From contig JAQUOV010000005.1 in the NCBI GenBank assembly GCA_028716965.1, positions 71,009 through 135,008 of the forward strand: 64,000 nt of DNA, read 5' to 3'. Below the pieces are notes generated by a model. It saw nothing but the letters and a program-made list of their open reading frames with translations. It was not told the origin of the DNA and ran no database searches. A program made the position numbers and the translations under genes. Origin of the DNA: Candidatus Omnitrophota bacterium (GTDB lineage: Bacteria; Omnitrophota; Gorgyraeia; Gygaellales; Profunditerraquicolaceae). Below are positions 5,744-61,552 of the stretch, piece by piece (position 1 is the first letter of the stretch; every line of letters begins with the position of its first letter).

Positions 5744-6785
5744 TTAAGACCTCGCATCCTTTACTGGTTACTAAGATCATATCCTCTATCCTTATCCCGA
5801 ATCTTGCCGGTAAATATACCCCCGGTTCTATAGTAAAAACCATCCCCGGCTTGACCGCGCTTGCTTCATTTCCTGAAATACGCGGGTCCTCATGTACCTC
5901 CAGTCCGAGACCGTGGCCAAGGTTATGGGTAAAATAGCGGCCATACCCCTTTGAAGCTATATATTCCCGCGCAACTTTATCAATTGCAGCCATTTCTGCG
6001 CCAGGCCTGACCCTTTTTATTGCCAATTTCTGGGCCTTGAGGACAATATCATAGACCTTGCGCACAAGAAAATTTATTTTACCCAAAAATAAAACTCTTG
6101 TCAAGTCGGATTTATACCCTTGGTAGTCAACTCCCAGGTCAATAAGTACCGGTTCATTATCCCTTAACCTCCTCTGCCCGGAAAGGTGGTGCGGTTGGCT
6201 TGAGTTAGGCCCTGAAGCCACGATTATATCAAAAGCAGAAGCGTTGCAGCCATGGTACCTTATAAACCGCTCAAACTCTGCTGCTATCTCTATCTCTTTT
6301 ACCCCGGGAACAACAAACTTCTTGATATGCTCAAATGCCAAGGATGTAATCCGGGTTGCCTGTTTAAGCTTTTTGATCTCCAGGCTATCCTTGACCTGCC
6401 TTTTATCTTCAATAATACTATGCGTGGGGATCAACTCAAGGCGGCCATTGGCATATTCTTTGATTTTGGCAAACTCCGCAAACGGAAGGTACCTTTCCTC
6501 AAACCCCAGCCTTTTTAACCCCAGGCCCAAAGATGCTTCGGCAATCCGCTTGAATACCGAACCATTGCACTCTTTAAGCCTGATCTTACTGTTTAGAAAG
6601 GCTTTTGCTTCTTCAGTATAGCGGGAATCGGTAAAATAGATACTCTTTTTTTCGGAAAGCAAAAGGTAGGAATCACGGCTTAAAAATTCAGCAAGATAGG
6701 ATATATTCGCCGGCAGGCAAACAAGCAAACCATCAAGCCTTCTTTGCTTCAACTGTGAATATATGCCTTTTAAGCGGGAGCTCAT
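5727..6785 (-). CDS. pepP: Xaa-Pro aminopeptidase (M24 family)
   Basis: Creatinase/prolidase N-domain plus M24 catalytic domain ([13 protein letters not shown]); often adjacent to efp. Confidence 0.8.
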
Positions 6786-7225
6786 TTTGCCTCAATCAGG
6801 TCAATGATAGCAGATAAGCCCAAGGTGTAACTTTTTGCCCCAAAACCCATGATTGTACCTTTAGCCACAGGGCTGATCAATGACTTATGCCTGAACTCTT
6901 CGCGGGAATAAATATTGGAAAGATGCACCTCTACCACAATTAATCCGCAGGCGGCGATGGCGTCGCGCACAGCCACGCTTGTATGGGTATAAGCAGCGGG
7001 GTTAATTAAAATACCTTGAAATTTATTTTTGCGCGCCCTGCCGATTAAATCCACAATCAACCCTTCATGGTTAGACTGCCTGATAGCCAAAGAAACCTTG
7101 TCCCTTTTGGCCTGGGCTTTAAGCGTGCGGTTAATTTCGGCTAAAGTCAGGCGGCCATAGATTCCCGGCTCCCTTTTTCCTAAAAGGTCCAAATTAGGCC
7201 CGTGTATGACCAGTATTTTCTTCAA
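6782..7225 (-). CDS. aroQ: 3-dehydroquinate dehydratase type II
   Basis: [24 protein letters not shown]... canonical type II DHQase. Confidence 0.9.
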
Positions 7226-7233
7226 GGCTTCCC

Positions 7234-7264
7234 CCTATATTCTATATACTACATACTATCTACT
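7234..7264. repeat. TA-rich 'TAGTA/TACTA' spacer element (upstream of aroQ)
   Basis: Plus: ctatattctatatactacatactatctactg. The sense (minus) strand reads CAGTAGATAGTATGTAGTATATAGAATATAGGGGG, 12 nt before the start codon. Confidence 0.7.
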
Positions 7265-7267
7265 GCT

Positions 7268-7420
7268 TTATTCCGCCTCATCAATCAACATCACCGGGAT
7301 ACCCTCACGCACAGGATATCTTCTACCGCACTTCTTGCAGACTATTTTATTATCTTTTAACTCCACATCGGCTTTACAGGCAGGACAAGCCAGTATATTC
7401 AACAGCTCTTTATCGATCAT
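7268..7420 (-). CDS. Trm112 family small zinc-ribbon protein
   Basis: MIDKELLNILACPACKADVELKDNKIVCKKCGRRYPVREGIPVMLIDEA; the track ORF's 5' extension runs into the REP element. Confidence 0.75.
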   Translation of the reverse strand: MIDKELLNILACPACKADVELKDNKIVCKKCGRRYPVREGIPVMLIDEAE

Positions 7421-7436
7421 TTTGTCTACAAAGACA

Positions 7437-7515
7437 ACACCCGCGCAATTTGCGCCAGCCTTGCGCACACCAACGCAATTCCTTATTAGCGTTGGGTGCC
7501 ATTAGCGCGGGGTGT
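7437..7515. repeat. REP-like 79-bp palindromic element, copy 2
   Basis: ACACCCGCGCAATTTGCGCCAGCCTTGCGCACACCAACGCAATTCCTTATTAGCGTTGGGTGCCATTAGCGCGGGGTGT; nested inverted repeats. Confidence 0.85.
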
Positions 7516-7941
7516 GTCCTCCCCTGTTCCAGGAGCAAGATAAGCCACCCTTAATTCATAAAGCAGGTTTTCCAAAAGTTTTGTTTCTTCGGGAGTCAGA
7601 TTCCCTTTAGTTTTACCCTGCAACATCCCTAATGTATCAATGATAAATTTTGCCTGGGCAGGGTCTTTTTGAGTTTTTTTGGTCTCCGGATTAACCATAT
7701 GCCCCAAAGCAATGGAAGCCTGTAAAGCAAGAGTAGTAACAAAGAATTTAAAATCCGGGTCAGGGGGGATAAAATTACCCTCCCCTTTATTAGCCAGCTT
7801 TTCCTTCTCTATGTTCTCTTTCCAGACCTCATCAACTTTCTTCTGGCTTCGGCTATCGGAAGCCAAACCATTGCCTTGCGGCTTATGGCTTCGGCTATCG
7901 CAGGCCGAACCCTCGCCTTCCGGTTTCTTTATCTCATCCAT
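7486..7941 (-). CDS. DUF1844-like hypothetical protein; C-terminal end encoded by a REP element, N-terminus contains in-frame 35-bp tandem repeat
   Basis: FIPPDPDFKFFVTTLALQASIALG core; last ~15 codons lie inside REP copy 7437-7515. Confidence 0.5.
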   Translation of the reverse strand: MDEIKKPEGEGSACDSRSHKPQGNGLASDSRSQKKVDEVWKENIEKEKLANKGEGNFIPPDPDFKFFVTTLALQASIALGHMVNPETKKTQKDPAQAKFIIDTLGMLQGKTKGNLTPEETKLLENLLYELRVAYLAPGTGEDTPRANGTQR

Positions 7942-10726: not shown

Positions 10727-12583
10727 TTAGAATTCAGCTTTCAGGCCGCCGGTAAAAGAGAAACCGGGCATGGGATAACCCCGTATAACCTGGTACTTAC
10801 GGTTCAAAAGGTTGTCTATGTAAGCAAAACAGCTAACTCCGTGCCTGAATTTCTTTGAGACGCTAATACCCAAAGTAAAGAAATTCTTTACCTTATCGGT
10901 ATTCACGGCGTTACCAAACCTCTGGCCCGTAAATTGGCCTTTCAACTCAACCGTCAAACCGTCATAGCCATGATATCTCAAGCAGGCATCAACTTTATTC
11001 ATCGGTTGATACACAAGGTATTTGTGAGTATCTGCGTCCCTTGCGATTAAGTATGTATAATTAATATCTAAATTAAGGTTATCCGAAATAAACATTTTAT
11101 TTTCAAGCTCTATGCCGTCTATTGCCGCGGAGCTGACATTCTCCGGCCGCCATACCGCGCTTGCATCAGGTGACCATTGTATAAGCTGTTTGAAATCACT
11201 GTGGAAATAAGTAAATCCTGAAACAAGGTATCTATTTATCCTTACCTCAGCTCCCAATTCTTCAGTAACCCCTTTTTCCGGCCTGAGATTAGGATTACCT
11301 TCTTCCCCCCCTGCTAACGCACCCTTATAATAGTAATAATTGGCAGGCCAATATAAGTCGTTAAAAGTAGGGGCACGGAAAGAACGGCTGATCAAACCAT
11401 GGAATTTTATGTTCTCATTGAATTTATAGAGTGCGCTTAAACCCGGATTAAACTGTGTGCCGAAATTGGAGTAATCATCAACCCGGCCGCTAAGATTGAT
11501 ATTGAGTTTCTTGTCAAATAAATCCAAGCGGTTTTCTATGTATCCTGCGCGCACAATATATTCATGTTTTGCGCTGGAGGTAGAGTCATTCATATTTCTC
11601 ACATAATTTAATCCGCATACTATGCCATAATCATCCAATAACTGTTTATCAAGCTGAAGATCAAACCCTCTGACTCTAGTCGTATGTATGTCCTTGGTAT
11701 AAGTAGTAGAATTCTCAATGAATTCCAGCCGGTCGTAATTCTGATAAGCCCTGGCTGATAACCCAGTCTGTTCATCCGGCTTAAAGCTCCATTTAAAATC
11801 AAAGAAACGCTTCAGCGTATTCTGTTTATCGTCTTCATCCGGCCAGCTTGTGGAGCCAGGAGCACCCACCTTACTTGCATAAAAACCGGAGTTAAACCAT
11901 AAATTATTTTCGCTATTAAGATCATACTCCAGTTTAAGATTGCAGTCCTTAGAGTTCAATTGGGAATTTTGACGGAAGCCCTCGGAACTTTCGTATCCGC
12001 CGCTGATAAGATAGCTGAATTTTGAGACCCTTGCTCCATATAGCGCCCGCTCGATATACGTCCTGGCAGTACCAAAGCTTGAATAAATTTCTGCCTTCTG
12101 CCCTTCCTTTGGCGGTTTCTTGGTGATGATATTGACCACTCCTCCCATTGCCGAACTACCATAGAGACTGGAGCCCGGTCCATGCATAACTTCCACCCTG
12201 GATACATTATCTAATGGAATATCGGATAAGTTAACCGAGCCGTCCCTGGGGTTGTTTATCGGCCTGCCATCCATTAAAACCAATACCTGGGAGGCGGTAG
12301 AACCGCGCATTCTTATATCTTTGTTAGCTCCCGGCCCGCCGTAATTACTTATATTGACGGAAGTAAGGTCTGTGAGGGCATCGGATAAATCCTGCGCCCC
12401 GCTTTCCTCCATTTCTTTGGCGGTAACCACATCAACCACGCGGCTGACATCTCCGGATGATTCTTCTATCCTTGAGGGGGTTACTACGATCTTATTTAAT
12501 TCTACATCTTGCGGAAAAGCGATATTTGGCAGGCAAAACAATAACAACCCCAGAAAAATCAGTTTCTTGATAATATTTTTCAT
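10727..12583 (-). CDS. btuB: TonB-dependent outer-membrane receptor, probable vitamin B12 transporter
   Basis: Signal peptide, TonB box (KIVVTPSR), plug plus 22-strand barrel, terminal aromatic residue. It is preceded by a cobalamin riboswitch and neighbours the cob/btu genes. Confidence 0.85.
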   Translation of the reverse strand: MKNIIKKLIFLGLLLFCLPNIAFPQDVELNKIVVTPSRIEESSGDVSRVVDVVTAKEMEESGAQDLSDALTDLTSVNISNYGGPGANKDIRMRGSTASQVLVLMDGRPINNPRDGSVNLSDIPLDNVSRVEVMHGPGSSLYGSSAMGGVVNIITKKPPKEGQKAEIYSSFGTARTYIERALYGARVSKFSYLISGGYESSEGFRQNSQLNSKDCNLKLEYDLNSENNLWFNSGFYASKVGAPGSTSWPDEDDKQNTLKRFFDFKWSFKPDEQTGLSARAYQNYDRLEFIENSTTYTKDIHTTRVRGFDLQLDKQLLDDYGIVCGLNYVRNMNDSTSSAKHEYIVRAGYIENRLDLFDKKLNINLSGRVDDYSNFGTQFNPGLSALYKFNENIKFHGLISRSFRAPTFNDLYWPANYYYYKGALAGGEEGNPNLRPEKGVTEELGAEVRINRYLVSGFTYFHSDFKQLIQWSPDASAVWRPENVSSAAIDGIELENKMFISDNLNLDINYTYLIARDADTHKYLVYQPMNKVDACLRYHGYDGLTVELKGQFTGQRFGNAVNTDKVKNFFTLGISVSKKFRHGVSCFAYIDNLLNRKYQVIRGYPMPGFSFTGGLKAEF

Positions 12584-12604: not shown

Positions 12605-12800
12605 GAGAGTACTTACCTGTCTGCCGTAGGCAGACCTGCGATAGGCGATCGACCGGGCTCATAAATCAGCATGTAGAATGTAGTAGGTAGAATATAAAGC
12701 GAACCTGCATTCTTTATTCTACCTTCTACCTACTGACTTACATTACCGTTGCGAGACAGCGCCTGGGATCATACCAGGACTTCCTTCGCCTATCCGGTTT
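12605..12800 (-). promoter_or_regulatory. cobalamin (AdoCbl) riboswitch in btuB leader
   Basis: Minus-strand read GGAAGUCCUGGUAUGAUCCCAGGCGCUGUCUCGCAACGGUAAUG matches the conserved cobalamin-riboswitch core (compare E. coli btuB GGGAAUCCAGUGCGAAUCUGGAGCUGACGCGCAGCGGUAAGG). A 3' B12-box-like GAGCCCGG...GCAGGUCUGCC follows, then a hairpin (GUCUGCC-UAC-GGCAGAC) next to the RBS/ATG. Confidence 0.75.
12671..12740. repeat. two inverted copies of the TA-rich element inside the btuB riboswitch
   Basis: ATGTAGAATGTAGTAGGTAGAATATAAAG...CTTTATTCTACCTTCTACCTACTGACTTAC; the arms are mutually complementary. Confidence 0.7.
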
Positions 12801-20699: not shown

Positions 20700-20905
20700 C
20701 TACTTTTCTTTACATAGGCAGGTCTTCTGGCTTGAGTTTCAACCTATTTGCTGCGCCTTCCCATGTTGGCATTTGTCAACACAGTGGCTTTGGCTATTTT
20801 GTAGCCAAACCACAGCCTTGCGGCTAGTGGCTTTCTTTTGCAGCTTTCGTCAACTCTTACAGCGGCGGGACCGCATCCGATTAACGCGCAGGCGTTACAC
20901 CCGCG
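20700..20905 (-). promoter_or_regulatory. cobalamin riboswitch in btuF-btuCD-cobC operon leader
   Basis: Minus-strand read contains GGUUAAUCGGAUGCGGUCCCGCCGCUGUAAG. It also contains GCCACUG (twice), UGGGAAGGC, and a near-perfect B12 box AAGCCAGAAGACCUGCC (plus 20716-20735). The 5' end abuts a REP element. Confidence 0.8.
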
Positions 20906-20975
20906 CAATTTGCGCCAGCCTTGCGCACACCAACGCAATTCCTTATTAGCGTTGGGTGCCATTAGCGCGGGGTGT
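20897..20975. repeat. REP-like 79-bp palindromic element, copy 3 (79/79 identical to copy 2)
   Basis: identical string to 7437-7515; immediately 5' of riboswitch 2 on the minus strand. Confidence 0.85.
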
Positions 20976-21036: not shown

Positions 21037-21064
21037 ACTTTAACACCCAGTAATAATTTGTCAA
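21037..21064 (-). promoter_or_regulatory. candidate sigma70-type promoter for the btuF operon (TTGACA-16-TAAAGT)
   Basis: Minus-strand TTGACAA at 21058-21064 and TAAAGT at 21037-21042, about 60 nt upstream of the REP/riboswitch leader. Confidence 0.3.
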
Positions 21065-21077
21065 CAAAATTTAATGA

Positions 21078-21120
21078 GCGCATAACTTACGAATACGGCA
21101 GCCTGAGTAAGTTATGCTGC
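21078..21120. repeat. GCGCATAACTTAC hairpin-family element (perfect 11-bp inverted repeat)
   Basis: GCATAACTTAC-gaatacggcagcctga-GTAAGTTATGC. Confidence 0.65.
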
Positions 21121-21182
21121 GGGAATCTAAATAAAGACCGCAAATTAGCGAACTAAAAGTAAATTTGAGCTGTTTGACCGAA

Positions 21183-35309: not shown

Positions 35310-35413
35310 TTATATCCTCCTTAAGCGATATTTTCTTATTATCTCAAAAATCAAGCACCTTAAATCTTTTATTCAGCGAAGTCCCTGCGAACATAAGTGA
35401 GCAGGGATTCATG

Positions 35414-40018: not shown

Positions 40019-40025
40019 TTAACGG

Positions 40026-40056
40026 GCGCTTAACTTAAAAAAATAAGTTAATGCGC
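40026..40056. repeat. related hairpin GCGCTTAACTTA-aaaaaa-TAAGTTAATGCGC (rplO-secY spacer)
   Basis: 12-bp near-perfect inverted repeat. Confidence 0.55.
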
Positions 40057-40109
40057 GAATTAACCCCCGCCTCCTTGTGCATTTTGCAAAACAAAAGGAG
40101 TGCGGGAAT

Positions 40110-42855: not shown

Positions 42856-43407
42856 TTATTCCTTATCTTTAAAAGGCATGCCGAAATATTTCAACAACGC
42901 CCTTGCCTGGTCTTTATTCTTGGCGTTCTTAATCACAAAGGTAATATCCATGCCTTGTGTGCGCGTAATCTTATCATATTCGATTTCCGGAAAAATGATC
43001 TGCTCGCTTAAACCCAGTGTGTAATTATTGCCCTTGTCAAAAGAATCCCTGGAGACACCGCGGAAATCGCGGATACGCGGCAGGGCAATATTGAGCAAGC
43101 GGTCCATAAATTCATACATCATTGCTTTTCTTAAGGTTACCTTAAGGCCAACCGACTGCCCCTGCCTGACCTTAAAATTAGCGATGGCTTTCTTTGCCTT
43201 GCGCACAATCGGCTTCTGCCCGGTGATACTGCCAAGCTCCTCCGAAGCCTTCTCTAATATTTTTATATCCTGGGTGCCCTCGCCGATACCCATATTCACT
43301 ACGATCTTGACTACCGATGGCACAGCCATCTTATTCTTAAGCTTGAAATCCTCCATCAACTTAGGAGCGATTTCGTCTCGGTATTTTTCCAGTAACCTCG
43401 GTATCAT
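42856..43407 (-). CDS. rplE: 50S ribosomal protein L5
   Basis: canonical. Confidence 0.95.
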   Translation of the reverse strand: MIPRLLEKYRDEIAPKLMEDFKLKNKMAVPSVVKIVVNMGIGEGTQDIKILEKASEELGSITGQKPIVRKAKKAIANFKVRQGQSVGLKVTLRKAMMYEFMDRLLNIALPRIRDFRGVSRDSFDKGNNYTLGLSEQIIFPEIEYDKITRTQGMDITFVIKNAKNKDQARALLKYFGMPFKDKE

Positions 43408-43440
43408 CTTTTCCTTTATTCTATTGAGCTCTTGCGTTTT

Positions 43441-43475
43441 ACCTATATTCTACATTCTATCTGCTACATACTGCC
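43441..43475. repeat. TA-rich spacer element (rplX-rplE junction)
   Basis: acctatattctacattctatctgctacatactgcc. Confidence 0.7.
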
Positions 43476-43787
43476 TTACAGTGCCCCCTTGCAGCTCTTG
43501 CAAAACCTGGATTTTGTGCCGTCTTTTAAGTTCATTATCCCTACTCGGCTGGGCTTGGAACAATGCTTGCAGAAAAGCATAAGGTTAGAAACACTCACCG
43601 GCATTTCAATTGAGAGGATGCCTCCCTTTTGATCCTGGCGGCTCTGGCGTTTATGCTTCTTAGCCAAGTTTAACCCCTCCACTAAAGCCCGAGAGCCGTC
43701 CTCGATAATATTTATTACCTTGCCTTGTTTACCCTTGTCCTTACCCTTGATTATCTGCACAAGGTCATTCTTTTTGATTTTCTGCAT
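43476..43787 (-). CDS. rplX: 50S ribosomal protein L24 (KOW) with C-terminal CxxC...CxxC motif
   Basis: IIKGKDKGKQGKV KOW; C-terminal CKHC...CKSC. Confidence 0.92.
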   Translation of the reverse strand: MQKIKKNDLVQIIKGKDKGKQGKVINIIEDGSRALVEGLNLAKKHKRQSRQDQKGGILSIEMPVSVSNLMLFCKHCSKPSRVGIMNLKDGTKSRFCKSCKGAL

Positions 43788-44155
43788 TAAATTACCTCTG
43801 GCGCTAAAGAAATTATCTTATTAAAATTTCTATCCCTTAACTCTCTGGCCACCGGGCCGAATACGCGTGTGCCCCTGGGGTTATCTTTTTCATCAATAAT
43901 TACTACGGCGTTACGGTCAAAACGCAATATTGAACCATCGGGCCTTCTTATGGCATGTTTAGTGCGCACAATGACTGCTCTGGCCTTTTCACCTTTTTTC
44001 ACAGCTGCACCGGGGATAGATTCCTTAATATTGACATTTATAACATCTCCCACCTCGGCGTTAAAGCTCCCTTTCTTGCCCAGCGTGCCAATCATGGAAG
44101 CCCTGCGCGCTCCGGTATTATCCGCAACATCTAAAATACTGCGCAACTGAATCAT
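43787..44155 (-). CDS. rplN: 50S ribosomal protein L14
   Basis: [17 protein letters not shown]. Confidence 0.95.
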
Positions 44156-44434
44156 CTATGCAATCTCCTCAAGTCCGGCAACTTCTACTTTCTGGAACTT
44201 CTTAAGCACATTCTTAACCGTAAAACGCTTATCTTTTGACAAAGGCCGGGTCTCCATAATCGTAACCGTATCTCCCAGTTTAGCCAGGCCTTTTTCATTA
44301 TGGGCCTTGAATTTCTGGTGCATCCTTACGGTTTTAGAATATTTTTTATGTTTGCTCAAATGCATGGTCTTCACCACTACCGTCTTCTGCATCTTGTCGC
44401 TTACTACTACCCCGGTAAATTCTTTCTTACCCAT
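44156..44434 (-). CDS. rpsQ: 30S ribosomal protein S17
   Basis: canonical. Confidence 0.93.
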
Positions 44435-44435
44435 T

Positions 44436-44627
44436 TTATTTATCTTTCTTCTCGTTTAAGATCGTCCTGATACGCGCGATATCCTGCTTGATCAGGGCAA
44501 ACTTGTGCGGCTTCTCTACGCTGCCTGTATAACGTTGTATATTCAATTTGGACAGCTCATCATATAAAGCCTTTTCCTTGACTATTAACTCTTCTTTCGA
44601 TAGGTTTCTTAACTCTGCTGGCTTCAA
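44436..44627 (-). CDS. rpmC: 50S ribosomal protein L29
   Basis: 63 aa. Confidence 0.9.
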
Positions 44628-44641
44628 ACTGCACCTTCCCT

Positions 44642-45058
44642 TTATTTATGCACCCGGGTCACAAACTTAGTGCGCAACGGTATTTTATAAGCTACCAGGC
44701 GAAAACATGCCCTGGCATACTCTTCAGGTACTCCGCCTAACTCAAAAAGTATACGGCCTCTTTTTACTACACTTACCCAGTGGTCAAGGTCGCCTTTACC
44801 CTTACCCATACGTACCTCTGCCGGCTTCTTGGTTATAGATTTATCCGGAAAGATCCTAATCCACAATTTCCCGCCTTTGTGCAGCTGGCGCGCAAGAATA
44901 ACACGTACTGCTTCAATCTGCGTATTCTTAACCCAGCCGTTTTCCAGCGACTTTAAGCCAAACTCCCCAAAAGACAGATACGCTCCGCTTGTTGCCACTC
45001 CGCGCCGCTGGCCCTTTTGTAATTTACGATATTTAACCCTCTTAGGCATTAAAGCCAT
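44642..45058 (-). CDS. rplP: 50S ribosomal protein L16
   Basis: [11 protein letters not shown]. Confidence 0.95.
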
Positions 45059-45126
45059 TTAGACTCCTTTAATCTTTTATCTACCAGGATCCTGCCGGAT
45101 CTGAAAGACAGGAAAAATTGCTTATT

Positions 45127-45828
45127 TTAGCGTTGAGGCCTAAATGATTCTTTAGGCTGCTGCTGTCCTGCCAGCCTTACCTCTTCCTGTATGAATTGCT
45201 TTCCCAGGATATCGCCTTTATAAATCCAAACCTTTACTCCAATAAGCCCATATGTAGTAAGTGCCTCGGCAAAACCATAATCAATATCCGCGCGTAAAGT
45301 TTGCAAAGGCACTTTGCCGATCTTGTAAGTTTCCTTTCGGCTCATCTCCGCGCCATTGAGCCGGCCGGAACAACTTACCCTTATCCCTTTTACTCCGGAA
45401 GCAATGGACTGTTCCATGGCCCTTTTCACTGCCCGGCGGAAAGCAATCCTTTTTTCCTGCTGCAAGGCAATATTTTCAGCTACTAACTGCGCATCCCAAG
45501 CAGGGTTGTTTATCTCATGTATATCTATGGAAAGCTCGTTTTTCACCAAACTATTCAAATCCGAACGCAGCCGCTCAATATCCGCTCCGTGCCGGCCGAT
45601 AATAATACCCGGGCGGGCGGAAAAGATACGGATCTTGATCTTCTCGGCTAACCTTTCTATGACAATCTTGGAGATCGCTGCCTGTTTAAATTTACTCTTG
45701 ATAAACTTCCTGATCTTGGAATCCTGCTGTATGAACAGCGGAAAATCTTTGGTTTTTGCAAACCAGCGTGAATTCCATTGCCTTATAAAACCAATCCTTA
45801 ACAATAAAGGATTTACCTTATGCCCCAT
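45127..45828 (-). CDS. rpsC: 30S ribosomal protein S3
   Basis: KH domain plus S3 C-terminal domain. Confidence 0.95.
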   Translation of the reverse strand: MGHKVNPLLLRIGFIRQWNSRWFAKTKDFPLFIQQDSKIRKFIKSKFKQAAISKIVIERLAEKIKIRIFSARPGIIIGRHGADIERLRSDLNSLVKNELSIDIHEINNPAWDAQLVAENIALQQEKRIAFRRAVKRAMEQSIASGVKGIRVSCSGRLNGAEMSRKETYKIGKVPLQTLRADIDYGFAEALTTYGLIGVKVWIYKGDILGKQFIQEEVRLAGQQQPKESFRPQR

Positions 45829-45831
45829 GAA

Positions 45832-46170
45832 TTATTCTCCAGGTTTTAAATCCAACTCGATTTTTATGTGCGCGGTGCGCTTAACTATTGACGCTGCCCG
45901 CCCAAACGCGGCAGCCTTGAACCTTTTCCACATCGGACCGGGATTACATACAATCTTGGAAACATACAACTTATCCGCCCCAAAACCTTTAACCTTAGCA
46001 TTGGCAATCGCAGATCTTAATATCTTTATTAAATATTCCTTGGCCCTTTTATTCAAATGCAACAAAATACTTTCCGCCTCAACAGCATCTTTGCCGCGGA
46101 TAAGATCCATAACCAACCTGACCTTACTGGGTGAAACCCGTAAAAATTTTCCTTCAGCCTTTGCTATCAT
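45832..46170 (-). CDS. rplV: 50S ribosomal protein L22
   Basis: canonical. Confidence 0.93.
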   Translation of the reverse strand: MIAKAEGKFLRVSPSKVRLVMDLIRGKDAVEAESILLHLNKRAKEYLIKILRSAIANAKVKGFGADKLYVSKIVCNPGPMWKRFKAAAFGRAASIVKRTAHIKIELDLKPGE

Positions 46171-46185
46171 CTTTGCCTTGATTCT

Positions 46186-46213
46186 CCCTACATTCTACCT
46201 ACTATATACTGAC
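46186..46213. repeat. TA-rich spacer element (rpsS-rplV junction)
   Basis: ccctacattctacctactatatactgac. Confidence 0.7.
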
Positions 46214-46214
46214 T

Positions 46215-46502
46215 TTACGTCTTCTCCAGCGCTTTTTTGGCTTTGATACCGCCGTGTTTCCTGAAGATCCTGGAAGGAGAGAACTCACCCAATTTATGTC
46301 CTACCATATTCTCGGTGATAAAAACCGGGATATGCCTTTTGCCGTCATAAACCGCAAAAGTCAAACCTACAAAATCAGGGGTTATAGTGGAACGACGGCT
46401 CCAGGTCTTGATCGCTTGACGCTGTCCGCTCTTAATATACCTTTCAACCTTCTTTAATAAACTCTCTTCGACGTATGGGCCCTTCTTCAATGAACGCGGC
46501 AT
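46215..46502 (-). CDS. rpsS: 30S ribosomal protein S19
   Basis: canonical. Confidence 0.95.
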
Positions 46503-46504
46503 AA

Positions 46505-47341
46505 TTATGGTTTCCTTCTCTTAATAATGAATTTATTGGAATATTTATTACGGTTCCTGGTGCGGTAACCCTTGGTAGGTTTACCCCAGGGAGTAACCGG
46601 GTGCGGATTACCCTGACCGGATTTACCTTCGCCACCGCCATGAGGATGGTCAACAGGATTCATTACCACGCCCCTTACCGAAGGTTTAATACCCAGCCAG
46701 CGGTTTTTGCCTGCCTTGCCTAAAATCAGGGATTCATGTTCAATATTTCCAATCTGGCCGATAGTTGCGTGGCAATCCAGGCTCACCAATCTTACCTCAC
46801 CGGAAGGCAGCCTGATATGCGCAAAATCACCTTCTTTTGCCATAATCTGAGCACTGGTTCCTGCCCCGCGGACGATTTGCCCGCCCTTACCCTTGAATAA
46901 TTCTATATTATGAATAAGGGTGCCGGAAGGGATATTGCGCAAAAGAAGGCAATTGCCTGCTTTTATCTCCATATCTTTCTGGTTGCTGGATATAATTACG
47001 TCCTCCACGTTAAGGCCCACCGGAGCAATAATATACCTTTTCTCTTTATTTGGATATTCTACCAAAGCAATCCTTGCTGAACGGTTAGGGTCATATTCAA
47101 TAGCCAGCACCCTTGCCGGCTGGTCATAAATATTACGCTTAAAATCAACTATGCGCAGCATGCGCTTATGCCCGCCGCCGATATGCCTGGTAGTTATACG
47201 GCCGTAACAATTCCTTCCGCCGGTTTTCTTAAGCGGCAACAACAGGGAACGTTCCGGTTTATGTTTGGTAATTTCGGAGAAATCCGGCCCGCTCATATGC
47301 CTTCTTGACGGTGTTGTCGGTTTAAATTTTATTGTCCCCAT
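46505..47341 (-). CDS. rplB: 50S ribosomal protein L2
   Basis: canonical (GRNxxGxITxRHxGGGHK). Confidence 0.96.
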
Positions 47342-47366
47342 ATTTTTATTCTTCTTTTTGATTTTC

Positions 47367-47400
47367 CCTATATTCTACATACTATATACTACATACTGTC
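47367..47400. repeat. TA-rich spacer element (rplW-rplB junction)
   Basis: ccctatattctacatactatatactacatactgtc. Confidence 0.7.
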
Positions 47401-47409
47401 TTTTAATGC

Positions 47410-47688
47410 CTACTGAACTTCAATCTTCTGGCCGGCAACTAATGTAACTACTGCCTTTTTGGTATCCGCAGTACGGCCTAACTGATGCCTTACCCTTTTT
47501 AGCTTGCCTGACGAAATAAAAGTATTCACATCTTTTACCTTAACCTTATATGCCTGCTCCACGGCTTTCTTGATCTGGATCTTGTTGGCGGAATTGGCTA
47601 CCAGAAAAAGATACTTGCCGGATGGACCATAGGTGCTGGATTTTTCCGTCTGTAAAAGTGCCTTGATCACCATCTGAGCAACACCCAT
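47410..47688 (-). CDS. rplW: 50S ribosomal protein L23
   Basis: canonical. Confidence 0.93.
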   Translation of the reverse strand: MGVAQMVIKALLQTEKSSTYGPSGKYLFLVANSANKIQIKKAVEQAYKVKVKDVNTFISSGKLKRVRHQLGRTADTKKAVVTLVAGQKIEVQ

Positions 47689-48332
47689 TATTTTAGCCTC
47701 TCAGTCAAATCAGTTAAACCGGCTTTGGTAATAAGCAGTTTCTGATTATTCATTACTTCGTAAGCATGGCAGTCCTTGGCCAGGTCAATGGTTAAAAAAC
47801 TTACATTCTTTAAAGCCTTTTTTAAATCAGCTTCTAATTTATTTGTCAAAAACAACACCTTGCTTTCTTTCTTAATCTTGGGGGAGCATAATTTAAGGTT
47901 AGTTAATACCTTTACCGCAGACTTAGTCTTGGGGGCATCAACCTTAAATTCATCTAATATCAGCAGGTTATTTTCTTTCAGCTTAGCGTTTAAACTGGTT
48001 TTTAAGGCCAGGGACTTTATCTTTTTTGGTATTTCATAAGAGAAATCCCTGGGGTGCGGCCCAAAGACTACGCCGCCGTGCCTCCAAATAGGAGAACGCG
48101 TAGAGCCTACACGGGCCCGACCAGTACCCTTCTGCTTCCATGGTTTCCTTCCGCCCCCGGAAACCTCTCCGCGGGTCTTAGTCGCAGCTAACCCTTTTCT
48201 CTGGTTTGCCCTGTAAGCTTCAATCGCCTGATAAAGACAATCGGTGTTTTGCGAACCGTCAAAGACTTCAGCGTTAAGCTTTATGGTATCGACTTCTTTG
48301 CCTTCACAATTATAAACAGGTAAGCTAAACAT
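47688..48332 (-). CDS. rplD: 50S ribosomal protein L4
   Basis: canonical. Confidence 0.95.
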   Translation of the reverse strand: MFSLPVYNCEGKEVDTIKLNAEVFDGSQNTDCLYQAIEAYRANQRKGLAATKTRGEVSGGGRKPWKQKGTGRARVGSTRSPIWRHGGVVFGPHPRDFSYEIPKKIKSLALKTSLNAKLKENNLLILDEFKVDAPKTKSAVKVLTNLKLCSPKIKKESKVLFLTNKLEADLKKALKNVSFLTIDLAKDCHAYEVMNNQKLLITKAGLTDLTERLK

Positions 48333-48333
48333 A

Positions 48334-48969
48334 TTATTTCTTGGCTACTGCTTTCTTAAAAGCCTTCTTCTTGGCTTTTGTAATTACCAAATAACCATTC
48401 TTATGTCCGGGTACTCCACCTTCAACCAAAAGAACATTATTTGCTAAATCCACTTTGATCACCTTAAGGTTTTGGACCGTGACCTTCTCCGCCCCCATGT
48501 GACCCGGCATATGATGTCCCTTCCATACACGTCCGGGAGTAGTAGTTGAACCGATGGAACCGACCCTGCGGTGGGAAGTGGAGCCATGCGTTCTTGGCCC
48601 ACCCTTCCAATGCCAGCGCTTCATACCTCCCTGGAACCCCTTTCCCAGGGAGATTCCGCTGACATCCACAAAATCACCCTCGGCAAAAAGGTCTACCTTA
48701 AGTTCGTCTCCAATTTTATATTCAACATTAGCCTCTTTAGAGATATCCTTGATCACCTTCCGCGGCGGGATATTTAATTTCTTAAAAAAACCTGCCTGCG
48801 GCTTCTTCAGGTTCTTTTCAGACGCCAACCCAAAGCCCAGCTGGATATTCTTGTCCTTAACCATCAAGACAGGACAAGGCCCAGCCTCTATGGCCGTAAC
48901 CCCGACCAGGCTGTTATCAGCCGTAAAAACCTGCGTCATCCCAATTTTCTTACCAATCAAGCCGATCAT
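48334..48969 (-). CDS. rplC: 50S ribosomal protein L3
   Basis: canonical. Confidence 0.95.
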   Translation of the reverse strand: MIGLIGKKIGMTQVFTADNSLVGVTAIEAGPCPVLMVKDKNIQLGFGLASEKNLKKPQAGFFKKLNIPPRKVIKDISKEANVEYKIGDELKVDLFAEGDFVDVSGISLGKGFQGGMKRWHWKGGPRTHGSTSHRRVGSIGSTTTPGRVWKGHHMPGHMGAEKVTVQNLKVIKVDLANNVLLVEGGVPGHKNGYLVITKAKKKAFKKAVAKK

Positions 48970-48993
48970 TTAAGTTTATCTTTTTTTAATTTG

Positions 48994-49299
48994 CTACTTG
49001 ATCTCTACATCCACACCTGCGGGCAAGTTTAACTTCCTTAATGAATCGATGGTCTTAGCTGTGGGTTCAAAGATGTCAATAAGGCGCTTATGGGTAGATA
49101 AATCAAACTGTTCACGGGATTTCTTGTCAACATGCGGAGAACGCAGTACCGTATAAATCTCACGCTTGGTGGGAAGCGGCACAGGGCCGGAAATCCTGGC
49201 CCCGGTACGCTTAACAGTATCCACGATCTCTATTACCGCCTGATCCAAAAGCCTGTGATCATAAGCTTTTAGCTTAATACGAATCTTCTGAGCATTCAT
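48994..49299 (-). CDS. rpsJ: 30S ribosomal protein S10
   Basis: canonical. Confidence 0.95.
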
Positions 49300-49314
49300 T
49301 TAGTAAGCACCTTT

Positions 49315-49357
49315 TCTTTTGCTAAAACAAAAACCCTGCGCAAGAAAAACAGGGTTA
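49315..49357 (-). terminator. rho-independent terminator/attenuator after tuf
   Basis: Minus strand: AACCCTG-(11 nt)-CAGGGTT hairpin including the stop codon, followed by TTTTGTTTT. Confidence 0.6.
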
Positions 49358-50557
49358 TGCAACAATCTCCGTAACTACGCCCGCGCCTACGGTATGGCCG
49401 CCTTCGCGGATGGCAAAACGCGACTCCTTCTCCATGGCAATCGGAGTAATTAATTCTACCTCTAAGACTACATTATCGCCAGGCATAACCATTTCTACCC
49501 CGGCAGGCAGAGCAGCTGAACCGGTAACGTCAGTCGTGCGGAAATAGAACTGTGGACGGTAACCCTTAAAGAACGGGGTATGCCTTCCGCCTTCTTCTTT
49601 AGTCAGGATATAAACCTGGGCCTTAAACTTTGTATGCGGTAGAATAGATTTAGGAGCAGCGATAACCATTCCACGCTCAATATCGTTCTTTTCTACGCCT
49701 CTTAAAAGCAGGCCGACATTATCACCGGCATGTCCTTCATCCAGCAGCTTACGGAACATTTCGATTCCGGTAACTACTGACTTCTTGGCTTCCGGCCTAA
49801 GGCCGATGATCTCAACTTCTTCTCCGACCTTTATCTTGCCGCGTTCAATCCTTCCTGTACCTACCGTACCTCTACCTTCAATACTAAAAACATCTTCCAC
49901 TGCCATAAGCAAAGGTTTATCTAATTCTCTGGGAGGAAGAGGAATAAACTCATCAACTGCTTTCATTAAATCCAAAATCGGTTTGGCATCCGGGCTATTA
50001 GGATCAGCTGCGGCATAAGCCTTATTTGAGCTGCCACGGATAATCGGTGTCTTGTCTCCGGGATACCCGTATTTAGTCAAAAGCTCCCTGATCTCCATCT
50101 CTACCAGATCCAAGAGCTCTTTGTCATCTACTAAATCAACCTTATTCATGAACACAACCATAGCCGGCACATTGACCTGGCGCGCCAAGAGAATATGCTC
50201 TCTGGTCTGGGGCATAGGGCCGTCAGCTGCTGAAACTACCAGAATTGCCCCGTCCATCTGGGCGGCTCCGGTAATCATATTCTTGATGTAATCTGCGTGG
50301 CCCGGACAGTCAATATGGGCATAGTGGCGTGAATCGGTCTCATATTCAACATGGGCGACTGAAATAGTAACTACCTTTGTATCGTCTCTAACTGTCCCAC
50401 CCTTAGCAATATCCGCATAGTCCCTATGCGCAGCCTTACCAAGTTTTGATAAAACATTACAAATGGCAGCAGTAAGCGTAGTCTTACCATGGTCAATATG
50501 GCCGATGGTACCGATATTTACATGCGGTTTACTTCTTACAAATTTCTCTTTAGCCAT
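49355..50557 (-). CDS. tuf: elongation factor Tu
   Basis: [10 protein letters not shown], 400 aa. Confidence 0.97.
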
Positions 50558-50577
50558 TTCTCAAGCCCTCCTATTTT

Positions 50578-52674
50578 TTAAAAAGTTTTTCTTGCGCCCG
50601 AATTCACTGCTCCTGAAACAATTTTCTCCGCTACATGCGTAGGAACCTCGCTGTAAAAGGAAGGTTCCATTGTATACGATGCACGACCCTGTGTCAAGGA
50701 TCTTGTTATAGTTGCGTAATTGAAAACTTCGGACAACGGGACATTCGCTCGGATAGTGCGTAAATTCAATCTCTGCCCAAGGGCAATAATCTTGGCGCGT
50801 CGGCTGCTTAAATCGCCTATGATCTGCCCCATGAACTCCTCGGGAACAATTACTTCAATATCCATAATCGGCTCTAATAATACCGGATGCGCTTTCCTCA
50901 TCCCGTCCTGGAAAGCAATGGAGCCTGCCATTTTAAAAGCCAGCTCCGAGGAATCAACCTCATGGAATGAGCCGTCTACTAAAACAACATTCACGTCGGT
51001 AACAGGATAACCTGCCAGGACTCCGTTTTTAGCCGCGCCCAATACCCCCTGCTTTACCGCGGGGATAAATTCACGCGGGATAGAACCGCTTTTGATTTTG
51101 TCCTCAAAAGTAATCCCTGTGCCGGGCGTCTCCTGCGGGCTCATTTCTATAACACAATGTCCATATTGCCCGCGGCCTCCGGATTGCGAAATAAATTTAC
51201 CGACGCTGGAAACACTTTTCTTGATTGTCTCACGGTATGCAACCTGCGGAGCGCCTACCTGCGCTTCTACATTAAATTCACGCAAAATCCTGTCAATAAT
51301 TATTTCCAAATGCAGCTGCCCCATCCCGGCAATAAGCGTCTGTCCGGTCTCATGGTTATAAGTCACCCTGAAAGAGGGGTCTTCATCCTCCAGCTTGTGC
51401 ATTGCCAGGCCCAATTTCTCCTGGGCATCTTTTGACTTAGGCTCAATCGCCTGCTGGATAACCGGTTCCGGAAAACGCATAGCTTCTATAAGGATAGGAT
51501 TCTTTTCGGTACACAACGTATCTCCGGTTTTAGTGTCCTTTAAGCCGACAGCCGCGGCTATATCTCCGGTAGAAATACTCTCCACCACCTCCTGGCGGTT
51601 GGCATGCATCTTGACGATCTTGGTCACCCTCTCTCTTTCTCTCTTAGAGGCGTTGTAAATATAGGTTCCGGAGGCAAGTGTGCCGGAATACATTCTTATA
51701 AAATAGATTTTACCCACAAATGGGTCTGTGGCTACTTTAAAACATAAAGCGGTAAAAGGGCTCTTGTCATCCGCAATCACCTCTTCAAATTCACCTGTAT
51801 CCGGATGCGTGCCTTTTACCGCGGGCACCTCTACCGGAGAAGGCAGATAATTTTTTACCGCGTCTAAAACAAGCTGCACGCCCTTGTTTTTAAAAGCAGA
51901 GCCGCAAAGTACCGGCACGAACTTGTTGGCAATTACGGTTTTACGGATCGTTTCCTTAATCTGCTCATTGGTTATTGTCTTACCCTGCAGGTAATCCTCC
52001 ATGATCAAATCATCCGCTTCAGCTAATTTCTCAATAAGGATCAGGCGATATTTCTCAAAATCTCCGAGCATATCTTCAGGGACATCTTTTAACTCAATCT
52101 CTTTGCCTAAATCGTCTTTATATAAGACCAGCTTTTTATCAACTAAATCCACAATCCCCCTGAAGTCAGCTTCCCTGCCAAAAGGGATCTGGATTGCCGC
52201 CACATTTGCTCCCAGCCTTTTATGCATCTGGTCAATCACTTCGAAGAAATCCGAGCCCGTGCGGTCCATTTTATTTACAAAAGCAATACGCGGAACACTA
52301 TAACGGTCTGCCTGGCGCCATACGGTTTCCGATTGCGGCTCAACTCCGCCGACACCGCAGAATACGACCACCGCGCCGTCTAAGACCTTTAGCGACCTTT
52401 CTACCTCAATAGTAAAATCCACGTGGCCCGGAGTATCAATAAGGTTAATCGTTACATCCTTCCAGGTGCAAGTAGTAGCAGCAGCGGTAATGGTAATTCC
52501 CCTTTCCTGTTCCTGGACCATCCAATCCATGGTTGCCGCGCCATCATGGACCTCTCCAATCTTATAGTTCCTGCCCGTATAAAACAGGATACGCTCGCTG
52601 GTAGTAGTCTTGCCAGCATCTATATGGGCGATTATCCCGATATTCCTTATTTTGTCTAACGCTATTTTTCTCAT
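50578..52674 (-). CDS. fusA: elongation factor G
   Basis: 698 aa, AHIDAGKTT. Confidence 0.97.
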
Positions 52675-52689
52675 CTCTTTTTTGCTTTT

Positions 52690-52724
52690 CCCTGCATACT
52701 ATATACTACCTACTACATACTGAC
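52690..52724. repeat. TA-rich spacer element (rpsG-fusA junction)
   Basis: ccctgcatactatatactacctactacatactgac. Confidence 0.7.
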
Positions 52725-52727
52725 TTT

Positions 52728-53198
52728 TTACCAGCGGAAATGCGCATAGGCTTTATTTGATTCAGCCATCTTATGCGTATCATCCCTTTTCTTAATCGCT
52801 GACCCTTCACCTTTATAGGCAGCAATAATTTCATCGGCCAGCTTTTCCTGCATAGGCTTACCCTTCCTATGCTGCGCGAAATCCCTGATCCAGCGCAAGG
52901 CAATGGAAGTTCCGCGTTCCTGTCTGACCTCTATAGGAACCTGATAAGTAGCTCCTCCGACCCTGCGCGGTTTTACTTCCAGGCGCGGCCGGGCATTATC
53001 CAATGCCTTATAAAATACCTTTAAAATATCCTGTTCATTTAAATTCTTCTGGGCAATATCAAAAGCACTATAAACCAGCTTTTCTGCAACTGATTTCTTG
53101 CCCTCAACCATAACCATATTGATAAACTTGGCTACTATCTTGCTGTTAAACTTAGGATCCGCTAGAATATTTTTTTCCTGCGCTTTTCTTCTTCTCAT
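52728..53198 (-). CDS. rpsG: 30S ribosomal protein S7
   Basis: canonical. Confidence 0.95.
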   Translation of the reverse strand: MRRRKAQEKNILADPKFNSKIVAKFINMVMVEGKKSVAEKLVYSAFDIAQKNLNEQDILKVFYKALDNARPRLEVKPRRVGGATYQVPIEVRQERGTSIALRWIRDFAQHRKGKPMQEKLADEIIAAYKGEGSAIKKRDDTHKMAESNKAYAHFRW

Positions 53199-61053: not shown

Positions 61054-61168
61054 AATCCCTTATGGCTTTGGCTATCAGAAGCCAAACCATAACCCTGTAA
61101 TTAATGGCTAAATTCAGCCTATCTTTAGTTACTTTAGTTTAATTAAATTTACTTATACTTACTTAAAC

Positions 61169-61552
61169 TTACTTTAACTCTACGGTTGCTCCGGCTGCTT
61201 CCAGTTTCTTTTTCATTTCAGCAGCTTCATCTTTAGTAGCGCCTTCTTTAACGGCTTTAGGAGCAGCATCTACTAAATCCTTAGCTTCTTTCAGCCCTAA
61301 GCTTGTAATAGCGCGGACCTCTTTAATTACCGCGATTTTATTCGCTCCGGAACTAACCAGCATTACGGTAAATACGCTTTTCTCCTCGGCTGCAGCAGCC
61401 GGGGCAGCAGCACCGGCGCTAGGTGCAGCCATCATCGGCATATTCGCACTTACGCCAAACTTTTCTTCTAAAGCTTTAACTAAGTCCGAGAGCTCTAAAA
61501 CACTCATCGTCTCTATTGACTTGATTAATTCTTCCATTTTCTCGGTTGCCAT
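61169..61552 (-). CDS. rplL: 50S ribosomal protein L7/L12
   Basis: [34 protein letters not shown]...; the track ORF's 10-codon 5' extension runs into REP copy 4. Confidence 0.93.

Follow-up and report, generated by a model that had tools for sequence, protein, structure and literature searches.

Among the long simple repeats of bacteria, those with a unit of seven nucleotides are the commonest, and for the ones that lie upstream of genes in Beggiatoaceae, Cyanobacteria and Geobacter neither a function nor a mechanism is, to our knowledge, established. What such a repeat might do is the question raised by a 64,000-nucleotide stretch of DNA (the window) from a Candidatus Omnitrophota bacterium (GenBank assembly GCA_028716965.1, contig JAQUOV010000005.1, positions 71,009 to 135,008), in which a short TAG-rich element occupies the spacers upstream of rplB, rplV, rplE, fusA and aroQ. 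An earlier note on this DNA offered three readings: an internal promoter, a leader module that decouples translation or binds a factor, and a dispersed repeat that is tolerated in spacers. The reading that we favor, with a probability of roughly 0.45, is an RNA module between cistrons, which would uncouple their translation and present phased UAG sites to a putative single-strand-binding factor.

A polar array of phased heptads between cistrons

Reading the sequence confirmed the element at all of the reported places, as a polar array of ~35 nt made of five phased 7-nt heptads on the sense strand. The consensus first proposed is better written as a 7-nt period, YAG-N-A-K-R, with four to five repeats in the window copies. 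The order on the sense strand is an A-rich tract, CAG-N-A-K-R, two to three units of TAG-N-A-K-R, TAGGGAA and an A-rich tail. In-register heptads are present in all seven window copies, which include both arms of an inverted pair. An nhmmer profile derived from 111 metagenome copies, none of them from the window, recovered exactly these seven (E = 3.8e-12 to 8.4e-4) and gave no further window match at E <= 10. A 12-mer from the element, allowed up to two mismatches, matched the window 15 times against 2.7 expected, a count that none of 100 shuffles equaled. Tandem Repeats Finder reported a period of 7 (or double, 14) at five of the places when the two arms of the inverted pair are counted separately, a period of 11 at 46181-46202 and no repeat at 43439-43473. 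The intercistronic copies are listed here with the tail of the first.

47364-47398, minus strand: E5, in the rplW (L23)–rplB (L2) spacer; CAGTATG TAGTATA TAGTATG TAGAATA TAGGGAA; nhmmer E = 9e-12
47342-47363, minus strand: 3′ tail of E5, A-rich, AATCAAAAAGAAGAATAAAAAT
52688-52722, minus strand: E6, in the rpsG (S7)–fusA (EF-G) spacer; CAGTATG TAGTAGG TAGTATA TAGTATG CAGGGAA; nhmmer E = 4e-12
46184-46211, minus strand: E4, in the rpsS (S19)–rplV (L22) spacer; four heptads, CAGTATA TAGTAGG TAGAATG TAGGGAG; nhmmer E = 1.4e-8
43439-43473, minus strand: E3, in the rplX (L24)–rplE (L5) spacer; CAGTATG TAGCAGA TAGAATG TAGAATA TAGGTAA; nhmmer E = 7e-8
7231-7265, minus strand: E1, in the spacer between a Trm112-like gene (7268-7468) and aroQ (6782-7225, TTG start); CAGTAGA TAGTATG TAGTATA TAGAATA TAGGGGG; nhmmer E = 3e-10

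The flanking genes are those that the earlier note had named. Identities of 87-97% to Pfam-annotated genes of relatives identify rplB, rplV, rplE and fusA, and aroQ matches Pfam DHquinase_II (E = 6e-57). The window's L2 is identical to a protein recorded for a Candidatus Omnitrophica MAG. The earlier note's placement of the r-protein copies within the S10, spc and str clusters was likewise borne out; the element reads along the sense strand there and immediately follows stop codons. In these five copies the first heptad follows the upstream stop codon by 2-11 nt and the last precedes the next start by 5-31 nt, a wider range than the 10-25 nt claimed before. E5 begins 11 nt past the L23 TAG stop (47410-47412) and ends 22 nt short of the L2 ATG (47341), and its tail AATCAAAAAGAAGAATAAAAAT holds whatever ribosome-binding signal L2 uses. 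E6 lies 5 nt past the S7 TAA and 13 nt short of the fusA ATG (52674), E4 lies 3 nt past the S19 TAA and 13 nt short of the L22 ATG (46170), and E1 fits between a TAA 2 nt upstream and the aroQ TTG 5 nt downstream. E3 begins 2 nt past the L24 TAA and is followed by a 31-nt tail, up to the L5 ATG (43407), that contains its own Shine-Dalgarno-like tract, AAAGGAAAAG. In E1, E4 and E6 the start codon follows the last unit by 5-13 nt, and in E5 and E3 by 22-31 nt.

Every element-bearing spacer contains at least one stop codon per reading frame, in agreement with the earlier description. Cytosine makes up 6.5% of the element spacers compared with 18.9% strand-wide. As RNA, the single copies are unstructured, with minimum free energies of -1 to -6 kcal/mol and z values of -0.9 to +1.4 against shuffles, and Rfam contains no family that matches them, either at the gathering threshold or, in a search over 43300-52800, at E <= 1. 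A structured leader or known RNA family was rejected on this basis. All window copies differ from one another, which argues against a recent burst.

An internal promoter would place the -10 box in the fourth unit, which reads TAGAAT or TAGTAT in most copies, and transcription would start in the GGGAA unit. A consensus scan for sigma-70-like sites found 17 in the region against 20.1 expected, so that there is no enrichment. Only E4 overlaps a 9/12 site, three of the four ribosomal-protein (r-protein) copies have no qualifying one, and the element has no -35 and -10 hexamers with a 16-18-nt spacer at a consistent position. Measured from the 5′ end, the TAGAAT unit is displaced by whole heptads between copies, and because the number of units varies (4 or 5) no -35 box stands at a fixed distance. 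Elsewhere in the Omnitrophota, TAGTAGG or TAGCAGA may take the place of the fourth unit, and both have no T at position -7; a promoter would have no reason to abut an upstream stop codon or to occupy a riboswitch stem, as the inverted pair described below does. We regard the promoter as very improbable.

Occupied and empty junctions in related Omnitrophota

The same junctions were compared in 15 related r-protein loci of Omnitrophota, in which open reading frame (ORF) calls are heuristic. Heptad arrays in these loci are restricted to S7–EF-G, L23–L2, S19–L22 and L24–L5, and none was present in 136 observations of the remaining junctions of the r-protein cluster. Out of about 30 junctions the element uses these four repeatedly, even in lineages whose protein identity is as low as 74%. 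All four are occupied in L183 (91% identity over ten r-proteins) and in L246 (87%), and subsets of them in L228, L201, L198/L089, L194/L125, L165, L066 and L014. Since L246 was selected by L2 homology and not by the motif, the pattern is not merely an ascertainment effect. The S7–EF-G junction is occupied in 5 of the 11 relatives with readable DNA (L165, L183, L201, L228 and L246); P0006, outside these 11, has a 50-nt gap there. The aroQ junction is also occupied in L196, whose aroQ is 84% identical to that of the window. At S19–L22 the relatives have five units, compared with the four of E4. The 3′ tails vary among orthologous copies.

Relatives that lack the element have compact sequences at the same junctions (TAAGATG, TAAATG or TAAGCTATG), which bears out the claim that it replaces otherwise tiny spacers. 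Heptads are absent from L001/L002, in which L2 is 95% identical to that of the window, and from L003 (88%). A neighbor-joining tree, rough and distance-based on ten proteins, mixes carriers and non-carriers and places L001 with L183, L247 with L246, and L250 with L066. In L001 the L23–L2 spacer is 18 nt (TAAACATAGGAAAACAAA) and resembles the last unit and tail of the element, and more distant non-carriers have no spacer there; together these suggest that L001 lost the element, rather than that it was gained elsewhere. The empty target junctions, TAAATG and TAAGATG, resemble others at which the element never occurs, for instance Adk–Map (TAAATG). Target sequence alone is therefore insufficient to account for site choice, and an insertion-target motif as the sole explanation was ruled out.

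The units themselves are unevenly conserved. Three of the junction arrays can be aligned unit by unit between the window and L183. In units 1-4 of these, no change was found among 48 sites at positions 1, 2, 3 and 5, compared with 12 changes among 36 sites at positions 4, 6 and 7 (Fisher p = 1e-5). The two rplB genes agree at only 59% of their fourfold-degenerate sites, and positions 4, 6 and 7 change at about the synonymous rate. If the copies are orthologous by descent, TAG-n-A is under purifying constraint, with the other positions drifting near the neutral rate within a restricted alphabet.

Other features of these clusters were recorded alongside the heptads. A further family of intergenic repeats, hairpin-forming and unrelated to the heptads, reads roughly (G)ATTAATTCGCGCATTAACTTAC...GTAAGTTAAGCGCTCAT, often after TAGATTCCCGCA; it occurs in the window at 40019-40109 (L15–SecY spacer) and 21070-21135, and in relatives at S3–L16 and S8–L6 of L246 and at S7–EF-G and L6–L18 of L247. 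Its occupancy is lineage-specific, and it uses r-protein junctions other than the heptad ones, except S7–EF-G in L247. Small GC-rich stem-loops are found at S3–L16 (45059-45126), L6–L18 (41492-41578), S4–rpoA (35310-35413) and EF-Tu–S10 (49300-49354); the last of these, after tuf, is followed by a T-run and is terminator- or attenuator-like. The 118-nt L7/L12–rpoB spacer carries a period-10 tandem repeat, TTACTTAAAC, in about four copies (61129-61179). In the r-protein/rpoBC cluster (33733-63880) all 36 stops that were read are TAA or TAG, with no TGA, which relatives occasionally use. The DUF1844 gene (7486-7941) has an in-frame 42-nt tandem duplication at 7840-7923, 83% identical, that adds 14 codons. 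GC skew on the plus strand is uniformly -0.14 to -0.18 across the window, and the minus strand encodes practically every long gene. The direction of the genes is therefore inseparable here from the probable direction of replication.

Copies beyond the ribosomal-protein operons

A scan of metagenome contigs that targeted the 3′ module of the element gave, among the matches listed, 113 non-redundant copies. In the flanks left free by the search pattern, exactly two additional heptads stay in register and are followed by five A-rich bases, after which the signal is gone. The frequencies in these flanking heptads are T.85, A.90, G.94, n, A.94, K and R. Since the signal ends after five heptads, the Omnitrophota form is a fixed five-heptad unit and not a variable microsatellite; a pure microsatellite was ruled out for it on this ground and by the orthologous junctions, which mostly have five units. 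Among 96 single copies, 47 have the stop of a sense ORF within 12 nt upstream, compared with 4 in the mirror control, and 53 have a sense start within 60 nt downstream, compared with 26. Random orientation and position, which the earlier note had named as evidence for a generic repeat, is thus not what we see. The genes downstream include hisB, kdtA, L2, L20, L22, L31, acpP, V-ATPase D, pgk, purA and others, and several junctions recur among different organisms.

A broader scan with a degenerate pattern, run on one genome per species, found at least 117 loci. Among the matches listed, 18 are from Omnitrophota and others are from Planctomycetota, Verrucomicrobiota, Chloroflexota, Elusimicrobiota, Atribacterota, Bacteroidota, Acidobacteriota, lineages of the candidate phyla radiation (CPR) and even Streptomyces and rhizobia. 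Units outside Omnitrophota include TAGTAGG, TAGCAGG and TAGCAGA, and the arrays listed reach 17 units. Copies are also found ~5 nt after tRNA 3′ ends (L050, L071 and L131). A phage origin was rejected, there being only 4 matches in IMG/VR.

The inverted pair reported at 12671-12740 proved to consist of the same element. It is not a pair of leaders, as had been supposed, and instead forms an extended variable hairpin of an adenosylcobalamin (AdoCbl) riboswitch.

12662-12743, minus strand: E2, inverted pair of E2b (12705-12740, minus strand) and E2a (12667-12694, plus strand); nhmmer E = 6.5e-7 and 8.4e-4
12640-12794, minus strand: AdoCbl riboswitch aptamer, RF01482, 28.4 bits, E = 0.003, under the gathering score

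In the sense (minus-strand) transcript the E2 pair folds as one long hairpin (-34 kcal/mol, z = -6.0) with its GGGAA-type ends facing the loop, an orientation found in every one of the 17 paired metagenome copies among the matches listed. The riboswitch sits upstream of a TonB-dependent receptor gene (10727-12583; Pfam Plug and TonB_dep_Rec). The heptad hairpin is a 79-nt insertion at the site of the model's 12-nt variable hairpin, and this replacement of a short hairpin accounts for the RF01482 score below the Rfam threshold. A like arrangement of riboswitch and heptad hairpin is present in another Omnitrophota genome (L009, 1381-1563; RF00174, E = 3e-4). A second cobalamin riboswitch in the window is canonical (20700-20949, minus strand; RF00174, 50.1 bits), with a promoter-like pair, TTGACA ... 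TAAAGT, upstream of it near 21040-21065 and with cobQ-like and other cobalamin-related genes around it.

The copies after tRNA genes and within the riboswitch bear on two further explanations. The element could be an RNA-processing or 'punctuation' signal, an endoribonuclease cleavage site that splits the transcript into segments of separate stability. Its anchoring 0-12 nt after stops and ~5 nt after tRNA 3′ ends, the loose distance to the next start and the unstructured, AU-rich character of the array are all compatible with such a role. However, a degenerate AU-rich cleavage site needs no invariant TAG-n-A five times over at a strict 7-nt period, and we consider this explanation improbable. 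Alternatively, the phased stops might act as a fail-safe terminator cassette that catches readthrough or frameshifted ribosomes after highly expressed genes. This would account for the stop in each frame of every spacer, for the position right after stop codons, and for the stop-bearing nature of the neighboring heptad families of relatives (GCTGAnA, AACTGTG and ACCTAGA). The units nevertheless use TAG only, never TAA or TGA, the first and often the last unit is CAG, and position 5 (A) is as invariant as TAG. Copies after tRNA genes and inside the riboswitch lie where no ribosome arrives, and we give the fail-safe cassette hardly any credence.

Those neighboring families lie 3′ of the TAG element in L139, L146, L172, L197, L200, L215, L221, L229 and others. 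Their units are GCTGAnA, AACTGTG, GTAACYA and ACCTAGA, most of them stop-containing, and also AAAAGCA. Over the 70 nt downstream of the element the autocorrelation is 0.39 at lag 7 compared with about 0.30 at other lags. The element was also seen directly upstream of genes for a '23S rRNA intervening-sequence protein' or bAvd-like four-helix bundle (L123, L161 and L217).

A proposed RNA-level module, a possible selfish repeat and comparison with known systems

Of the three readings first offered, the leader module is the best supported, although no binding factor was found. In this module the element would be transcribed within the operon mRNA, right after a stop codon and ahead of the next cistron, where its 44-68-nt insert would abolish termination-reinitiation coupling of the flanking cistrons. 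Because a spacer of ~20 nt nearly abolishes such coupling (PMC10666635), spacer length alone should suffice for this effect. The unstructured, C-poor array would leave the downstream start region exposed, and the last unit with its tail (GGGA, GGAG or AAGGA) may provide the Shine-Dalgarno sequence or lie next to it. Spaced 7 nt apart, the four to five UAGnA sites could then form a multivalent platform for a putative single-strand-RNA-binding factor that recognizes NAG triplets in phase, in the manner of HutP (7-nt period) or TRAP. Occupancy by this factor beside the ribosome-binding site, in whichever direction it acted, would set the initiation frequency of L2, L22, L5, EF-G, AroQ and many housekeeping cistrons.

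Several observations weigh against this module. Homologs of HutP, TRAP, CsrA, RRM proteins and Hfq were not found in the window or in 1.7-1.8 Mb of related-loci DNA, a fragmentary sample whose silence says little. The tblastn queries were HutP (its sequence checked against PDB 1VEA), TRAP, CsrA, a cyanobacterial RRM protein, CspA and Hfq; the CspA query returned nothing relevant from the same sample, which is equally uninformative. With no HutP-like factor found, the factor-binding step is one that we infer. The sister lineages L001 (of L183) and L247 (of L246) are without the element at every junction and have clean, compact sequences there; the element is therefore dispensable, and its turnover between sisters resembles the behavior of a mobile repeat. 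Many phyla have similar heptad arrays, which vary in length and are also found behind tRNA genes and as hairpins. The start codon lies anywhere from 5 to >100 nt away, a looser spacing than expected of an element that occludes a ribosome-binding site. Apart from housekeeping, no functional theme was seen among the downstream genes of the metagenome copies. Finally, the constraint test assumes that the compared copies are orthologous by descent, an assumption supported by the 34/35 identity between the L23–L2 copies of the window and L183 and by an identical 5′ flank at S7–EF-G.

The main rival explanation is a selfish or neutral short repeat, non-autonomous and comparable to short tandemly repeated repetitive (STRR) sequences, repetitive extragenic palindromic (REP) elements or miniature inverted-repeat transposable elements (MITEs). 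Such a repeat would spread or expand, perhaps by replication slippage, by a single-strand transposase or by template switching at A-rich sites, and the stops in all frames, the absent cytosines and the end resembling a Shine-Dalgarno sequence would reflect a filter for survival, not function. The all-or-none presence between sister lineages with clean empty sites, the similar arrays at at least 117 loci over many phyla (some of up to 17 units), and the copies after tRNA 3′ ends and in riboswitch variable loops all fit this explanation. In addition, A-rich direct repeats (AAAG, AAAAAG) flank several inserts in the manner of target duplications or microhomology, though they are 3-6 nt long and imperfect. 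The unrelated hairpin repeats in the same operons of relatives indicate that these spacers tolerate insertions. In the antisense orientation the element would be C-rich, G-poor and similar to a Rho-loading site, and selection against such RNA could by itself account for the sense-strand bias.

Other features fit poorly with a selfish repeat. The five-unit length is fixed and the internal order is polar. The same four of about 30 junctions are reused, and the hairpin repeats lie elsewhere save at S7–EF-G in L247. The 0/48 changes at TAG-n-A compared with near-neutral positions 4, 6 and 7 are hardly expected of neutral decay of inherited copies, and the window copies are all non-identical, with no recent burst. 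Terminal inverted repeats and a target duplication of fixed length are absent and no transposase was seen nearby; a classical MITE or REP was rejected since single copies have no terminal inverted repeats, hairpin or fixed target duplication. The suggestion of a dispersed repeat tolerated in spacers thus stands insofar as the element is widely dispersed and is gained or lost between sisters, and falls short with respect to its fixed length, junction specificity and constraint. We judge a selfish or neutral repeat to be possible but on the whole unlikely.

A more specific form of the RNA-level module would be a post-transcriptional system in Omnitrophota, and perhaps in other array-bearing phyla, with an oligomeric single-strand-RNA-binding protein that reads five UAGnA sites at defined junctions and sets downstream initiation. 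It would cover S7–EF-G, L23–L2, S19–L22, L24–L5 and many housekeeping operons, and a factor gained or lost with its sites as one unit would explain the all-or-none pattern between sisters. In this full form the proposal is doubtful. A functional element would add a new layer of control over the synthesis of r-proteins and EF-G in an uncultivated phylum. A selfish one would stand out among mobile elements as polar and unusually small, with a striking site preference inside essential operons. New relative to earlier descriptions of heptamers are its discrete five-unit architecture, the four r-protein junctions kept across a deep clade, the empty sites in sister lineages and the position-specific signature of constraint. 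The sequence (UAGUAGG)n ending in UAGGGAA, together with the phyletic pattern, offers a concrete bait in the search for a partner.

A search of the available literature returned nothing relevant on this heptad or on Omnitrophota repeats. Several better-known systems invite comparison. REP and REPIN elements are reportedly mobilized by RAYT transposases (work said to be that of Nunvar in 2010 and of Bertels and Rainey in 2011). Like them, the heptad element is short, extragenic, abundant and strand-biased and contains GTAG tetranucleotides, and the hairpin of the E2 doublet is REPIN-like. Unlike them, single copies are non-palindromic, unfolded and built of a 7-nt tandem repeat; folding is confined to the E2 doublet. 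In the sequence at hand, which is not a whole genome, no gene for a RAYT was noticed.

A second group for comparison is made up of long simple sequence repeats (Mrazek 2007, as summarized in PMC4679880) and the cyanobacterial STRR heptanucleotide repeats. The latter were reportedly described by Mazel and colleagues in 1990. With this group the element shares a 7-nt period, an intergenic position and a phylogenetically scattered occurrence, and the long TAGTAGG or TAGCAGG arrays of other phyla fit the class. In Omnitrophota, however, the copy number is essentially five, the units are non-identical, the array is polar with defined flanks, and length variation driven by slippage is not the main feature.

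HutP reads XAG triplets at a 7-nt period, recognizing the A and G, with site I spaced at U498, U505 and U512 (PMC2425495). The heptad arrays resemble HutP and TRAP sites in their NAG triplets, unstructured RNA and 7-nt spacing, with A and G invariant and the first base giving CAG or TAG. They differ from HutP sites in having five contiguous sites, compared with 3 + 3 with a linker, and an invariant A at position 5. Unlike at HutP and TRAP targets, there is no overlapping terminator or antiterminator, and the sites lie at junctions between the cistrons of housekeeping operons.

The closest precedent is the TAACTGA heptamer of marine Beggiatoaceae, present in 2-6 copies, intergenic, forward and just upstream of starts (MacGregor 2015, PMC4679880). 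These repeats also lie within r-protein operons and ahead of fusA, and their distribution is patchy, both among relatives and over phyla. They have no known function and were proposed to be the site of a post-transcriptional or translational regulator (PMC4679880). In both cases tandem, stop-containing 7-nt units are intergenic, directed toward starts, internal to r-protein operons, placed before fusA and patchy in distribution. The Omnitrophota unit, TAGNAKR, is degenerate at three positions, and since YAG-N-A-K-R differs from TAACTGA the two are analogues and not the same repeat. The Omnitrophota array is also a fixed, polar set of five units with specialized first (CAG) and last (TAGGGAA) members, and its anchor is the upstream stop codon, whereas the largest class of TAACTGA repeats ends 1 nt before the start. 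Beyond the TAACTGA case, the same four r-protein junctions are kept across the clade and the units show position-specific constraint.

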